37,507 nt of DNA from a virus (taxonomy: Duplodnaviria > Caudoviricetes). The notes under the pieces are model-generated. The model searched no databases, was not told the DNA's origin, and saw only the letters and a list, made by a program, of their open reading frames with translations. Positions 5,476 through 37,507 of the stretch are shown in pieces (position 1 is the first letter of the stretch; every line of letters begins with the position of its first letter). The translations under genes were made by a program, and so were the position numbers. The DNA lies in IMG/VR virus record IMGVR_UViG_3300022930_000019, positions 1 to 37,507 of that record; one strand, given 5' to 3'.

Positions 5476-5529
5476 TTGATTCTGTAGCGAGTATGGCATA
5501 TAATAAGGGTGTAAAAGAAAGGTTTTACT
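5476..5529 (+). promoter_or_regulatory. early promoter cassette, copy 2
   Basis: TTGATT-17-TATAAT; spacer CGAGTATGG; leader GTAAAA-GAAAGG-TTTTAC. Confidence 0.75.
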
Positions 5530-9498: not shown

Positions 9499-9704
9499 TA
9501 GTTGTTTATAGTGCACGCTGCATGGCTTGTAGTCACAAACACCTTCACAGGACACTCACTCACTACGCTATGGAAAATAAGGTAAAGTACGAAGTACGCC
9601 GGACTAATTTATCTAAACAATTTGAAGAGGAGGCATTACAGTACGGATTGAAGCTACCCTTTGTTGTGGTAGACGGAGAAGCAAAAAGGATTGAAGATCT
9701 ATAA
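9495..9704 (+). CDS. glutaredoxin/thioredoxin-fold small protein
   Basis: MIVVYSARCMAC...LPFVVVDG; start corrected to ATG 9495 (RBS GAGG). Confidence 0.6.
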   Translation: MIVVYSARCMACSHKHLHRTLTHYAMENKVKYEVRRTNLSKQFEEEALQYGLKLPFVVVDGEAKRIEDL

Positions 9705-10348
9705 TGTATCCTGTGGTTTATTCTTATAAAAAGTCAAAGACGAGAGAGTTCGAACTATCACTTGAGTCGCTCAAAAATATTAAAGAGTGGAACGGTGTAG
9801 TCTTCGTGATCGGAGATATTCCCGATGTAGGGAATTATATTAAGTACAACCACATACCGATCAAATACAAGTGGGGAAAAGAATCACACTCTAAATCAAA
9901 CGATGAGATATGTGCTTACCTCACAGCCGCTGATTTTCTTGATGAGTTTATTATTATGGCTGATGATATATACATCTTGCAGCCCTGGAGTTTGGAGTAT
10001 CAAAACAGAGGAACATTAGACGATCACATTAAGACCAGGGCTAGAGGTGATAGCTATGCTAGACAACTTAGAGATACGAGGGATTTCCTGTTAGACAACG
10101 GTCAACCTACTCTAAGCTATGAAATGCACATACCTATGCTAGTTAAGTCAGATCAATTACGAGATGCCGCTGAGCTCGTTAGAACATCTCGTACTATGTT
10201 TATACGATCTATCATAGGTAACTGGTTCGAGATACCTTCTAACAAATCAATAGACCCTAAGAATCAGCCATTGACGGATGATACTGTGTTATATTCATCG
10301 CAAGATAGTACGTTTGATTACGAAAAAGTGAGGAGTTATTTAAAATGA
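9704..10348 (+). CDS. putative glycosyl/sugar-phosphotransferase (GT-A/Stealth-like)
   Basis: ELSLESL, VFVIGD, FIIMADDIY, YEMHIPM motifs; lies next to gmd. Confidence 0.5.
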   Translation: MYPVVYSYKKSKTREFELSLESLKNIKEWNGVVFVIGDIPDVGNYIKYNHIPIKYKWGKESHSKSNDEICAYLTAADFLDEFIIMADDIYILQPWSLEYQNRGTLDDHIKTRARGDSYARQLRDTRDFLLDNGQPTLSYEMHIPMLVKSDQLRDAAELVRTSRTMFIRSIIGNWFEIPSNKSIDPKNQPLTDDTVLYSSQDSTFDYEKVRSYLK

Positions 10349-11289
10349 ACAGATCAAGTGTATGGTTACGCAAAGAAAAGGGCACAGATATTGGGATAGA
10401 ACATAATGCAGAGGATAACTTCTTTTGGAACCCTTCAATCGCATGGCACAATAAAGAACTCTTTGTGTCATATCGTGGATATCGGAAAGACCCTAACTCA
10501 TTCAGATCTTATACAAGCCCTCTCGTCGTGGGAAAGCTAAAAGGTGATAAGTTAGTCGAGTATAAGGAATTAACGCCCCAAAACGTCCCAGATTACGTTA
10601 AGGAGTGTGGTATCGAAGATGTAAGGATATGGAGCGACGGCGAAAACTTATATGGGATCGGTGTTGTCCTTTCCGAGTTCCCAAGTGATCTAAAGCGCAA
10701 GAAACTAAACGTAAGACTTGCTGAGATTAAGATTAACTACGAAAAAGGAACCTACGACTTTATCGAAGACTTCGGGCAGCCTATCGGATTTCCTGAAAAG
10801 AACTGGTCACCTATTCAAGGACGACCACACGAATATATGTACGCAGTAGACAAACTGTACAGCTTCGGTATTATTACCCTCACAACCCCTAGAGCTACAG
10901 TAGACCATAGGATAATTCATAACGGTACACCACTTATGAAAATAAATGGCGGATATATAGCAATCATCCACCAAAGGACACGTCTTGCTAATCGAGCTGG
11001 TTGTTATCCTAATATGTTTGTTAAATATAACGACGACTTAGTACCTATTGAGTGTACTGACTGGTTCGTATTTGATGACTATAAAGATGAAGAAGTGCAG
11101 TTTATGTCAGGTGCAGCACTGCTAGACAAAGAAACCCTAGGAATAACAGTTGGCCTTGATCGAATCACTGCAAGGCGACCAGCGTTATACAAAAGTTTGC
11201 TATACAAAGTAAAGCTGAGTGATATTGATTGGCAGCCGTATAAACCGACACCTCTATTTCGGGGTGTTTATAGAGAAGGAGACAAATAA
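10345..11289 (+). CDS. five-bladed beta-propeller glycosidase/phosphorylase-like protein (GH130/GH43-like)
   Basis: WNPSI, GIEDVR, EKNWSP, HNGTP, VQFMSG blade motifs. Confidence 0.55.
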   Translation: MNRSSVWLRKEKGTDIGIEHNAEDNFFWNPSIAWHNKELFVSYRGYRKDPNSFRSYTSPLVVGKLKGDKLVEYKELTPQNVPDYVKECGIEDVRIWSDGENLYGIGVVLSEFPSDLKRKKLNVRLAEIKINYEKGTYDFIEDFGQPIGFPEKNWSPIQGRPHEYMYAVDKLYSFGIITLTTPRATVDHRIIHNGTPLMKINGGYIAIIHQRTRLANRAGCYPNMFVKYNDDLVPIECTDWFVFDDYKDEEVQFMSGAALLDKETLGITVGLDRITARRPALYKSLLYKVKLSDIDWQPYKPTPLFRGVYREGDK

Positions 11290-12290
11290 TGATAGCATTT
11301 GTAACGGGATGGACGGGTCAAGACGCAACACACCTTACTAAGCTGTTGCTAAGTAAAGGATACATTGTCATTGGATTAGTTCGTAGAGTATCGACAGAGC
11401 CACCACATCGTATTCGTAAGGGTTATGATTTCACCGAATCTATTAACTCAGGTCAACTCATACTAGAGACAGGTGATCTATTAGACCCGTCTAGCCTACG
11501 ACGTATTATCAAGCAGTACCAACCAGACGAAATATACAACCTTGCCGCACAAAGCCACGTCGGGTTGAGCTTCAAGCAACCAGAGCTTACAACACAAGTA
11601 GATTACATCGGTGTTATGAACCTTATCTCCGCACTAGAGACTTCACACGAAGGTAAATGGAAGATGTATCAAGCCTCAACAAGTGAGATGTACGGAGCTA
11701 AGGATGAGGGATCAATACTTAACGAAAAGAGTGAACTAAACCCTAACTCACCGTATGCCATTGCGAAGACAGCAGCGCATTACTACTGTAGAAGCAAGCG
11801 ATCGCAAGGACTGTTTATCTCAACAGGCATTCTATTCAACCATGAGGGAGAGCTACGAGGTGCAGACTTCGTAACTATGAAGATCGCTAAAGGTGTGAAC
11901 GCTTGGATTGAAGACCCTACACAAATACTAGAGCTTGGTAACATGAACTCAGTACGTGACTGGGGATACGCAGGTGATTTTGTAGAGGGTATGCACCTTA
12001 TCATGCAACAAGAAGAAGCAGACGAATTTGTTATTGCAACTGGAGAAGTTCATACAGTACGGGATTTTGTTGAAGCGGCTTTTAAAGCTAAAAAACTAGA
12101 GATCAAATGGGAAGGTGAAGGACAGGATGAAAAGGGCTGTGTGAATGGTGTTCTAGCCGTAAGAATTAACCCAGAGTTCTATCGTCCTAATGAAGTTGGA
12201 TATTTATTAGGAGATGCAAGCAAGATCAAAGCTATTGGATGGGAACGTAAGACAAGCTTTGATGAGTTAGTAAATATAATGGTTAAATGA
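11289..12290 (+). CDS. gmd: GDP-mannose 4,6-dehydratase
   Basis: TGWTGQD, YNLAAQSHV, QASTSEMYG, SPYAIAK, GILFNHE, RDWGYAGD, YRPNEV. Confidence 0.93.
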   Translation: MIAFVTGWTGQDATHLTKLLLSKGYIVIGLVRRVSTEPPHRIRKGYDFTESINSGQLILETGDLLDPSSLRRIIKQYQPDEIYNLAAQSHVGLSFKQPELTTQVDYIGVMNLISALETSHEGKWKMYQASTSEMYGAKDEGSILNEKSELNPNSPYAIAKTAAHYYCRSKRSQGLFISTGILFNHEGELRGADFVTMKIAKGVNAWIEDPTQILELGNMNSVRDWGYAGDFVEGMHLIMQQEEADEFVIATGEVHTVRDFVEAAFKAKKLEIKWEGEGQDEKGCVNGVLAVRINPEFYRPNEVGYLLGDASKIKAIGWERKTSFDELVNIMVK

Positions 12291-34841: not shown

Positions 34842-35177
34842 TTAATAAAAATCAACAGAACGGACAGCTAATCCACTCTCTTGTAGATATTCTGAATATG
34901 TTTTACCGGAGTTAACATTCGCTCTGCTTTTATCATAAAGCTCCTCATGGGCTGGAACACAAAATGTCTTTAAACATTCAGCCCTACACCATAGGCAACG
35001 CCTAATTTTTCTTAGCGGTTGTGTTGGATCGTACTTTAAATCTTGAATGTCACGAACGTAGTGCTTTTCAGCTGCAGTCCTTATTCTAATTTCATTGACG
35101 TGTTTGCAACGTTTAGAACAGAAAGGCGTGTTTTTACCTGTCCTAATGTCATCGCTACATTCGATACATGTTTTCAT
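34842..35177 (-). CDS. double zinc-finger protein (leaderless), candidate regulator
   Basis: CIEC...FCSKRC; CLWC...FCVPAH; TATAAT 7 nt before ATG 35177. Confidence 0.6.
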   Translation of the reverse strand: MKTCIECSDDIRTGKNTPFCSKRCKHVNEIRIRTAAEKHYVRDIQDLKYDPTQPLRKIRRCLWCRAECLKTFCVPAHEELYDKSRANVNSGKTYSEYLQESGLAVRSVDFY

Positions 35178-35368
35178 AGGTTCCATTATAGCGCACTTAA
35201 AAAGCCCCTTTTCCGTCGTGTTAAACGCGGGGAGTTAATCATTCAAGCTATTCCCTGAAGTAAAAACAGCCTCTAATTTCTATATGTATAATCTATGTAA
35301 AGTAAGTGTATACATTGTACATAGCAACAGATATAAAAAGTCTTAATCAATCAAATCAATGAATCGTG

Positions 35369-35420
35369 TATTAAGGGTCTTCGTTATTCTATTAAGGACT
35401 AGTTAACTATTTATTAAAGG
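35369..35420 (+). repeat. iteron-like TATTAA(A)GG x3
   Basis: Copies at 35369, 35390, 35412 (21-22 nt period) beside an AT-rich tract. Confidence 0.45.
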
Positions 35421-35861
35421 TATGTAAGAGGACTCCTATTCTTTTGCATCATGACTTTGTACTAGCCCTAGCATCCTTATAACCCTAAACTCTGTTTCCC
35501 GTATAGCAATGTACAATCATACTTGTCGTCCGTTTTATTGGGTGGAATAGGTAGCCTTGGAAGTCCTCACAAATACCTTTAATAGTTATAGACAAATGGC
35601 AGGCTCACAAGCATTCAAATCTTCTGCAGAAGTCCGAAAAGGGGCTGACGCCCACTTATGAGCCATCAATCGTCTATAACATAGTTCCAAATTGTTAAGG
35701 TATCTATATTTATATTCTCTCATACTTCAGTACAAAAGCAGACTTATTACGATAGCCTAAAACGTTGACGTATTTACCGGCTGTTTTAAAGTTGCGCCGG
35801 AAGCTTACGAGGACTCCCCACAACTATTGCACAACGAATAAAAATAACCTATAATGAATGA

Positions 35862-35911
35862 GTCTAGTAATACTAAACACAAACACAAGGGGCGCTCAAA
35901 GCGTCCTTTTT
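35862..35911 (+). ncRNA. ~50-nt antisense RNA
   Basis: TTGCAC-17-TATAAT (35827-35855); terminator AAGGGGCGC/GCGTCCTTT followed by T. Confidence 0.6.
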
Positions 35912-35997
35912 AAATTGTTTTCTATTCTAACCTATGTATTATGTCTAGTAATACGAAGGTTGTACCTATCTTACTTTATTTTGCGTGCTTTTACAAC

Positions 35998-36101
35998 AAG
36001 AAAAATAGCCCCGAGGGAGGCTATAATTCTTCAAAATATACATCTACAGTTACCCGAACAGGTAGTGTAAATATTCACCAAGGTACTATGCCTCGCCGCA
36101 T
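35998..36101 (-). ncRNA. sRNA unit D
   Basis: TG-C-TACAAT; hairpins with minus-strand G.U pairs; terminator ATAGCCTC/GGGGCTAT + TTTT. Confidence 0.55.
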
Positions 36102-36120
36102 ATACTCATTGTAGCATAAT

Positions 36121-36234
36121 GTCTTACCCTACTATGTAATTGACTTGGCAGTCGGCCAGACGGGATCTTCTGCTAGTAGGGTATGCTCTGTAAAAATAAT
36201 CAAAGCTATATGTTTGCAGTCTTACCATCTGACT
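36121..36234 (-). ncRNA. sRNA unit C (strand less certain)
   Basis: TG-G-TATAAT at 36241-36249; 10-bp TACCCTACTA/TAGTAGGGTA helix; no U-tract. Confidence 0.45.
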
Positions 36235-36255
36235 ATTTTTATTATACCATCTTAG

Positions 36256-36385
36256 AAAACAAATAAGACTCCGTTACGAAGGCTCAGTATGTGGAGGGTA
36301 TTACATCTGAACGGGAGTCTTACTGCCTAACTTTCGTTAAATAGGGGGTATGAGGTGCTATTGACTGATTATCGCATCAATCAAC
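36256..36385 (-). ncRNA. sRNA unit B
   Basis: TG-T-TATAAT at 36392-36400; 13-bp G.U-rich 5' hairpin; C-rich unpaired segments; TAAGACTC/GAGTCTTA + U-tract. Confidence 0.6.
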
Positions 36386-36420
36386 AACTTGATTATAACA
36401 TAACCGGTAAAAAGGTACAT

Positions 36421-36518
36421 AAGCAAAATACTCCGCTTGCGAGAAACGGAGTATTGCTATAGAGGGTAAAAGGTTTTACATATTGCGATCGAAGATCACG
36501 CAATGAAAGCCCTCTAAT
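36421..36518 (-). ncRNA. sRNA unit A, antisense to the early-leader RBS motif
   Basis: TG-T-TAAAGT promoter; hairpin carrying GTAAAACCTTT; terminator AATACTCCG/CGGAGTATT. Confidence 0.6.
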
Positions 36519-36566
36519 ATGTCTACTTTAACATCATTGAGTATATTTTGTAAAGTAATAATATAC

Positions 36567-36620
36567 TTGTAATACAAACGAGTATGGTATACAATAAAGA
36601 GGTAAAAGAAAGGTTTTACT
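36567..36620 (+). promoter_or_regulatory. early promoter cassette, copy 3
   Basis: TTGTAA-17-TACAAT; spacer CGAGTATGG; leader GTAAAA-GAAAGG-TTTTAC. Confidence 0.75.
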
Positions 36621-36622
36621 AA

Positions 36623-36799
36623 ATGGACGATATAGATATACGTATCAAAGAATTAAACAGACAGATGGCTATTCAGTTGGTTAGGCATGCAATGACCGAT
36701 TATTTTCAACAGGTTATGAAACAAAATGGAACTGACTCTACCGAAATCGCAACAGTAACAGTAGATAAAGTTATTAAAGCACTAGAGTGGAAACCATAA
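36623..36799 (+). CDS. 58-aa hypothetical protein
   Basis: RBS GAAAGG; TAATG-coupled to the recombinase. Confidence 0.6.
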   Translation: MDDIDIRIKELNRQMAIQLVRHAMTDYFQQVMKQNGTDSTEIATVTVDKVIKALEWKP

Positions 36800-37368
36800 T
36801 GCAAGATGAACTAACAGAAAAAGAGCTTGCGGTTGTGAATAAAGCAATCCAAAAGCAAAAAATGACTGAATTGACGTATAAAGCGGTTCTTTCGATCAAT
36901 CCGCCTACAAAGATCGTAAAGCATCATGAATTCGGCAAGTTCGACTACCTACCTATTACGGCAGTTGAGCGTCTCCTAGACGGTCTATTTGATGGATGGA
37001 CACCAGAGATCCTACGTGAAGGCTCAGTTATTAATGGCTTTTACGTGGTTGTAAGGTTAAAGGCAAAAATCCCTCAATCAGATAAATACCTTGTCGCAGA
37101 TGGTATCGGATTTGCTGAATTTCAGACTAGGAGAGGTGCAGAGCCTACAGACTTTACACAGCTTATGCAAAGTGCCGGTGTCATGGCAATCCCGCGAGCA
37201 AAAGCTGAGGCTATTAAAAATGCTGCTAAGTCATTTGGTAACTTATTTGGACGAAACCTCACACGCAAGGATGACCAATCCATCGAAGAAGCAGACGTTG
37301 TTAATGCCTCACGTGCCAAAATTGCAAACACACTAAACCAAGGTGAAGACAAGAATGAAACAAATTAA
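36799..37368 (+). CDS. Rad52/Rad22 (Sak-like) single-strand annealing protein
   Basis: YLPITAVERLLDGLFDGW, VVVRL, DGIG, AKAEAIKNAAKSFGNLFGRNL; start corrected to ATG 36799. Confidence 0.8.
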   Translation: MQDELTEKELAVVNKAIQKQKMTELTYKAVLSINPPTKIVKHHEFGKFDYLPITAVERLLDGLFDGWTPEILREGSVINGFYVVVRLKAKIPQSDKYLVADGIGFAEFQTRRGAEPTDFTQLMQSAGVMAIPRAKAEAIKNAAKSFGNLFGRNLTRKDDQSIEEADVVNASRAKIANTLNQGEDKNETN

Positions 37369-37507
37369 CTTATCCCCAAGTTTCCTTACAAAAGTATATA
37401 AAAAAGGCTATGATTATGCGGTGGGTGAGAAACTCGGTCTATTCAATACAGACACTAAGGCGATGAGTGACGGAAGATTGCTACATGCCCTTATATCAGA
37501 ACGTCTC
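37355..37507 (+). CDS. N-terminal part of the PD-(D/E)xK exonuclease, continued at window start
   Basis: MKQINLSPSFL...AMSDGRLLHALISERL (LSPS and G..LH motifs); open to the window end. Confidence 0.7.
   Translation, partial: MKQINLSPSFLTKVYKKGYDYAVGEKLGLFNTDTKAMSDGRLLHALISERL

Follow-up and report, generated by a model that had tools for sequence, protein, structure and literature searches.

The locus analyzed here raises the question of how a small phage genome without a recognizable initiator starts its DNA replication, and whether a long RNA encoded between its late and early genes takes part in this process. The window, i.e., the whole stretch of DNA analyzed (a virus record of 37,507 bases), carries genes for terminase, portal, a ClpP-capsid fusion, tail, a Rad52-like annealing protein and NinG, and no integrase, repressor, initiator, primase or helicase was found among its 70 ORFs scanned against PHROGs and Pfam. 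Since the record is cut inside a gene, its ends (37352-37507 and 1-560) falling within one RecE-like nuclease gene, the window genome is circularly permuted and nearly complete, despite a completeness estimate of 40%; the same portal is present in another assembly of 37,679 bases. Among the sequencing runs listed as matching the window were four DNA runs from leaf litter, one of them possibly its source, and no RNA run. The long-RNA locus sits in the gap 35187-36622, with the end of the late genes on one side and a divergent early operon on the other (Table 1).

An earlier note on this DNA had read the locus as a long, ORF-free, switchable RNA opposed by an antisense RNA. The minus-strand promoter hexamers that it named (TTGTAA at 35996-35991 and TAAGAT at 35973-35968, 17 nt apart) and all six of its pairings are present where it had placed them, and promoter-like hexamers occur at the equivalent position in many of the relatives described below, as judged by eye. 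Over 35300-35960, the fold of the minus strand is better than that of shuffled sequence (z -3.88, as compared to -2.76 for the plus strand; 20 shuffles each). Exact 9-bp inverted diagonals number 6 in 35190-35996, whereas 200 shuffles had 1.6 on average and never more than 5. The long RNA turned out to be larger than first drawn, running on the minus strand from about 35961 to 35193; the proposed 3' limit at 35314 was too short and left out a conserved 3' half at 35258-35193. The description of some 650 nt as ORF-free holds except for an overlapping 70-aa plus-strand ORF (35858-36070), which is probably spurious and gave neither Pfam nor PHROG matches. One helix, 35314-22/35509-17, is at chance level (78.5% of shuffles contain at least one 9-bp diagonal), and neither of its arms lies inside the blocks common to relatives. 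As to the two alternative partners suggested for 35559-84, 35695-703 lies in a motif conserved in 44 of 47 members, but 35809-18 is the conserved 5' strand that covaries with 35229-35 rather than with 35559-84. The mutually exclusive folds, as the note had listed them, are conserved only in part. GC-skew mapping of an origin, which the note had advised, was uninformative, as the skew turns near 36271, tracking the change of coding strand.

Table 1. Predicted and conserved features of the long-RNA locus and its neighbors (window coordinates).
Feature	Position	Strand	Remarks
Predicted long-RNA promoter	35968..35996	-	-35 TTGTAA, 17 nt, -10 TAAGAT
5' hairpin SL1 with phage-specific seed (35943-35954)	35929..35961	-	predicted small-RNA target
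Predicted antisense RNA, ~55 nt	35861..35914	+	5' seed 35862-35873, terminator-like hairpin 35887-35908, T run
Predicted antisense-RNA promoter	35827..35855	+	TTGCAC, 17 nt, TATAAT
Conserved 5' core	35725..35827	-	two pseudoknots plus P1, P3, P4 and P5 strands
Pseudoknot 1	35825-19 with 35796-90	-	conserved 5' core
Helix P1	5' strand 35819-13, 3' strand 35235-29	-	covarying long-range pair
Helix P3	35800-777	-	conserved 5' core
Pseudoknot 2 and P4	35765-40	-	conserved 5' core
Helix P5	5' strand 35739-27, 3' strand 35258-47	-	joins 5' and 3' core
Conserved motif, alternative partner of cargo stem B 5' strand	35692..35702	-	44/47 members
Cargo stem A (35672-80 with 35585-93)	35585..35680	-	encloses branched insert
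Cargo stem B (35566-83 with 35413-30)	35413..35583	-	variable insert; ORFs or tRNAs in relatives
Conserved 3' core	35229..35258	-	P5 and P1 3' strands
3' tail: hairpin, A run, G run	35193..35228	-	G run able to re-pair with P1 3' strand, terminator-like
Zinc-finger-like ORF	34842..35186	-	downstream neighbor of RNA, not a conserved element part
Rad52-like (Sak) annealing protein	36787..37368	+	opens divergent early operon; locus marker in relatives

The RNA belongs to a real, conserved and apparently undescribed family, with 52 distinct copies (some of them near-identical) in phages, actinobacterial prophages and a 7.2-kb island. The first relative, L003, was reached via Sak and has three gap blocks in common with the window; the members come from viral, genome and metagenome contigs that were scanned with patterns, the hits then being filtered with profiles, and the motifs used as patterns are conserved partly by construction. 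The named hosts are Dietzia, Cryobacterium, Arthrobacter, Pseudarthrobacter, Kocuria and a Rathayibacter, all of them Actinobacteria; two Bacillota pattern hits failed the profile and were dropped. The family is rare, and its covariance model was absent from 150 other genomes of G002's family and from 150 genomes of G171's class (small genomes). The window had no Rfam match at the gathering threshold, the region at E <= 10 and L003 at E <= 5 gave only chance-level matches, and annotated phage and plasmid collections yielded short chance-level matches or none. No description of the family was found in the open literature covered, and the core motif was absent from the full texts searched and from 6 supplementary files of PMC10690425; the family may still be one of the ten thousand candidates that this source leaves unnamed.

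The core of the RNA covaries and contains two pseudoknots, and long-range helices close it around a cargo that differs between members. When 42 of the 52 5' cores were aligned (10 near-duplicates were left out), the 22 pairs forming the two pseudoknots and three helices were paired in 86.2% of cells, as compared to 69.9% in shuffled and 24-38% in slid alignments, and two-sided changes numbered 153 against 49.8 in shuffles; relatedness inflates the contrast with shuffles, and the structure was drawn from the same sequences. Pseudoknot 2 occurs as ACG/CGU in 42 copies, GCG/CGU in 9 and ACC/GGU in 1. P1, the closing helix, forms all of its 7 pairs in 23 of the 46 members having a 3' end, one of them through a compensatory change, and L197 shows a further compensatory change in this helix. 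The conserved G-U pairs favor the minus strand acting as single-stranded RNA. Group I and II introns, RNase P, tmRNA, omega-RNA, hammerhead, pistol and HDV-like RNAs, compared by their consensus features, were dropped on the blank Rfam search and the helix order. In 26 of the 46 members, not including the window, an inner copy of the 5' strands could capture the 3' strand; such inner copies, sequestering the 3' core strand, count against a role in replication, which leaves them unexplained.

The 3' tail bears on the suggestion that the locus is a cis-acting attenuator of the zinc-finger gene. The G run of this tail is found in 42 of 46 members, with a weak and variable U-tract, and in the window the tail can fold into a terminator-like hairpin just before that gene. 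Among 44 members, however, the first downstream ORF lies on the same strand in 23, on the opposite strand in 20 and is absent in 1, and no common family recurs among these ORFs. Since the orientation of the downstream gene is random, a leader attenuator is ruled against, and we regard this reading, which the earlier note had offered as its second option, as very improbable.

The antisense RNA of the note was recovered as a prediction, with a plus-strand promoter and a terminator-like hairpin followed by a T run. Its seed is the second copy of a direct repeat, the first lying in SL1, and its promoter is placed alike in type I members (by eye). Across the family, the controller consists of an upstream 5' hairpin whose phage-specific seed of 11-18 nt complements the 5' end of the predicted RNA of ~55 nt. 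A repeat of at least 12 nt between the 5' hairpin and a site 60-100 nt downstream was found in 45 of the 51 members with enough flank, as compared to 19 of 510 shuffles. The controller was assigned in 49 of these 51 members (L163 and L197, where the layout is absent, were excluded, and L230 was reassigned by hand): in 31 the repeat is direct and the small RNA antisense, and in 18 it is inverted and the small RNA sense. In the direct type, to which the window belongs, an opposing promoter would yield an RNA beginning with the seed complement; in the inverted type, that RNA would come from an inner promoter located on the same strand. Because two layouts lead to the same RNA-RNA pairing, regulation by an RNA is favored over a DNA operator. 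The mean energy of cognate duplexes is -21.8 kcal/mol, as compared to -8.3, and the cognate duplex is the best in 43 of 49 members, partly by construction. On the sequence evidence, the RNA family has a dedicated, predicted antisense controller. Blocking the seed in equilibrium folding clearly raised the terminator probability in 5 of the 18 sense-type members and barely moved it in the rest, so that a consistent switch was not reproduced; folding of truncated transcripts with the seed blocked gave mixed directions.

What this controller controls is suggested by relatives in which the RNA is replaced. Five Sak-related genomes have no RNA core, and four of them (G007, G008, G009 and G010) keep the controller; the fifth, G019, is the most distant and was looked at less closely. 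Behind the controller, G008 and G010 carry a protein of ~95 aa, and G007 and G009 carry other ORF-free structured stretches. The latter (L270:17480-17900 in G007 and L274:10230-10720 in G009) fall outside the RNA model, have a similar purine-rich tail and are candidates for further RNA families; a pattern built from the G007 RNA matched only itself. The ~95-aa protein did not occur in any of 13 genomes or prophage regions bearing the RNA, and all four further loci encoding it possess the controller (two direct and two inverted); in two of these four, short, iteron-like repeat arrays precede the ORF. Loci of this family behind the controller, with short repeat arrays, include L272:10075-10368, L007 at about 2600-2930 and L285-L288, and in L007 three sites resembling the DnaA-box consensus lie beside the gene.

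The ~95-aa family comprises 35 representatives (33 aligned), and its nearest named Atlas families are DUF6017, DnaB_2, RepB_C and gp59 (0.76-0.77), all replication-initiator or loader domains, which we treat as a lead. There was no meaningful Pfam match, the DnaB_2 profile included, and no viral match at E <= 0.001; comparison with the DnaD domain 2zc2 gave Z 4.8 and rmsd 2.8 over 60 aligned residues at rank 17, tied with unrelated folds, a weak indication that the protein is DnaD-like. The reason that the earlier note had given for a replicon, i.e., that no initiator is recognizable, did not hold: no Pfam match to a Rep, primase or replicative helicase was found in 113 of 199 representatives from RNA-bearing relatives and, likewise, in 100 of 145 from relatives without the RNA, so that the missing initiator is not discriminating. 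Sites resembling DnaA boxes lie upstream in 5 of 40 members (about 2.4 expected), and none was found near the window's RNA copy. The replicon reading itself, with an antisense regulator, is the best supported, and it is favored because the controller is common to a protein-type module.

Given that related phages place a small initiator-like protein behind the same switch, we postulate that the long RNA likely initiates phage DNA replication under antisense control, in a manner similar to ColE1 and without homology to it; we put the probability of this reading at about 0.5. Both RNAs would be transcribed from the locus, and the long RNA would start phage DNA replication in cis. The small RNA would invade SL1 and block production or folding of the core. 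In this way it may confer copy control and homo-immunity that are phage-specific and need no protein repressor. When unblocked, the core would do the job of the small initiator-like protein, either by staying on the template (as an R-loop or primer, as in ColE1) or by recruiting host restart proteins. If this is true, it would explain both replication and immunity of small phages in which no initiator, primase, helicase or repressor is recognizable. Moreover, an RNA-based origin would gain a structure that is defined and covarying, such as was not met in the parts of the mycobacteriophage paper covered here (PMC7157519). As protein and RNA replace each other behind one controller, the question can be tested directly in cultured hosts of the Arthrobacter type. 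The seed variants, which number in the dozens, point to a set of orthogonal replicons or RNA switches usable in Actinobacteria.

Prophages of cluster A mycobacteriophages have RNA-based origins, with an ORF-independent region of about 600 bp, a noncoding RNA and no RepA (Wetzel 2020, PMC7157519). The family resembles them in its actinobacterial phage hosts, its noncoding RNA and its ORF-independent region, but the prophages examined here are integrated, at variance with what that part of the paper describes. RedRock, Gladiator and Alma (3 of the 5 origins) gave no HMM or covariance-model match, and no parABS was found in the window or in 11 member loci. As far as the same part of PMC7157519 describes it, the ColE1 RNA II/RNA I pair shares with our system a long ORF-free RNA, a small counter-RNA at its 5' part, a sequence-variable specificity and the absence of a recognized initiator gene. 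As in ColE1-type systems, the sequence of the predicted small RNA complements the long RNA in its 5' region; no Rfam match to ColE1 RNA I (three stem-loops) was obtained at gathering or at E <= 10. In contrast to ColE1, a single terminator hairpin is predicted for the small RNA, along with a 5' seed that targets a separate upstream hairpin through a repeat; the small RNA is sense-encoded in 18 of 49 members, and the core combines two pseudoknots with exchangeable cargo.

The cargo lies between the core halves, whose spacing is 87-666 nt (47 members). Long stems with conserved arms hold mutually unrelated inserts; in the window, the arms of cargo stem A are common to relatives and its branched insert is not. 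One cargo contains a full tRNA-Cys, tRNA-like motifs occur in 9 of the 47 members, and 9 of 47 have ORFs of at least 50 aa, one probably spurious and several of one family. The tRNA-like RNAs, whose anticodon and T loops carry long insertions, sit in long carrier stems (L003:4390-4712 and the cargo of L148, L160, L162 and L214); such RNAs are also present outside the core and in L272:7147-7767. Small ORFs with strong ribosome-binding sites lie inside the cargo stems of L182, L231, L236, L238, L243, L218 and L228, and the six scanned had no Pfam match. The 77-aa ORF at L180:2676-2909 (minus strand) looks like the Acb2/Tad1 hairpin (Atlas 0.87; Tad1 at ranks 2, 3 and 6 but with E about 1), a resemblance that we treat as a lead only. 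Because of the shape of these stems, we presume that they are RNase III sites; RNase III would cut out the long stems and release passenger RNAs and mRNAs, some of them probably anti-defence.

Such cargo could mean that the core is an expression scaffold, protecting or processing a transcript that delivers anti-defence products (tRNA mimics and sponge proteins) upon infection and that is silenced in lysogens by the small RNA. The tRNA-Cys, the tRNA-like motifs, the ORFs and the Acb2/Tad1 look-alike would all suit it, but members with inserts of 87-150 nt retain the full core and mostly the controller, a second cargo array of L003 is located outside any core, and the swap with a protein module is left unexplained; we therefore consider a scaffold rather unlikely. 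ROOL and GOLLD are large phage RNAs that contain pseudoknots and a variable linker with room for tRNAs, and their core measures 580-800 nt (PMC12286853). Our family, likewise phage-borne, pseudoknotted and tRNA-capable, differs from them by a conserved core of about 150 nt and a dedicated, predicted antisense controller, and the window and L003 were not matched by the ROOL and GOLLD covariance models of Rfam. More speculatively, a family of phages and islands could rely on one RNA-only cassette for both immunity and replication, in which the small RNA, variable in its seed, controls an initiator slot whose occupant is interchangeable, being a small protein in some phages and one of several unrelated pseudoknotted RNAs in others, and in which the RNA described here truly replaces the initiator and carries processed anti-defence cargo; we regard this wider scheme as possible, though doubtful.

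In free phage genomes, the RNA sits at a fixed locus. Four integrated prophages carrying it possess a serine integrase, a coupling-protein-like ATPase and Replic_Relax, and no repressor, primase or helicase was found among the subset of their ORFs scanned. In 9 of the 11 loci inspected, a Replic_Relax gene is no more than about 3.5 kb away; together with the ATPase it is presumably a mobilization pair, although it could itself serve replication. The prophages G002-G005 (L203-L215 and L250-L252) have a GC content of about 52-55%, as compared to 62-79% in their flanks, and a large serine integrase, beside dprA in three of the four; they may be phages that also could be mobilizable. In Dietzia, an island of 7,197 bp (L209:11052-18305) at tRNA-Leu contains an integrase, the RNA module, passenger genes, an Mrr-like nuclease and an IS, with no recognized Rep and no lytic genes. 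Its content speaks for replication initiation by the RNA, as do the four prophages and the precedent of mycobacteriophage RNA-based origins. An antisense pair with element-specific seeds on such a minimal island would fit an RNA toxin-antitoxin or addiction module stabilizing the element. We find this improbable, as the RNA showed no conserved toxin ORF and free phage genomes carry the RNA at their fixed locus.

The reading that ranks next after replication initiation is an RNA-only switch of lysis/lysogeny or early genes, in which the small RNA silences the transcript for an activator or antiterminator (an RNA or a small protein), not an initiator, as modeled on P4 CI or P1 C4. In the pIP501 RNAIII and pT181 rep attenuators and in the P4 CI and P1 C4 immunity RNAs, a small RNA binds a nascent leader hairpin. 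Similarly, in the sense type the small-RNA terminator directly precedes the core, i.e., the controlled unit, and in several predicted folds a G run can pair with the 5' arm of this terminator. The family differs from these systems in that it controls a structured RNA rather than a Rep or Ant protein, even if relatives place a small protein in this position, and no Rfam match was obtained. The locus is divergent from the early operon, no CI-like repressor was found in the four prophages scanned, and the 44 distinct seed strings among the controllers suit immunity groups. However, the Dietzia island has no lytic genes to switch, the short repeat arrays before the protein form resemble an origin, and the downstream genes have no fixed orientation. 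We consider such a switch unlikely, and replication initiation by the long RNA remains our preferred reading.

A few further observations concern the window itself. No relatives of a 186-aa neighbor protein were found in the viral contigs searched. A cluster comprising GDP-mannose dehydratase and adjoining genes precedes the terminase (9704-12290) and is possibly devoted to surface or DNA modification. Between the long-RNA promoter and the early operon, the minus strand of 36000-36620 contains more ORF-free, well-folding stretches (z down to -5.5), and the segment 36580-36620 recurs at 5488-5529.
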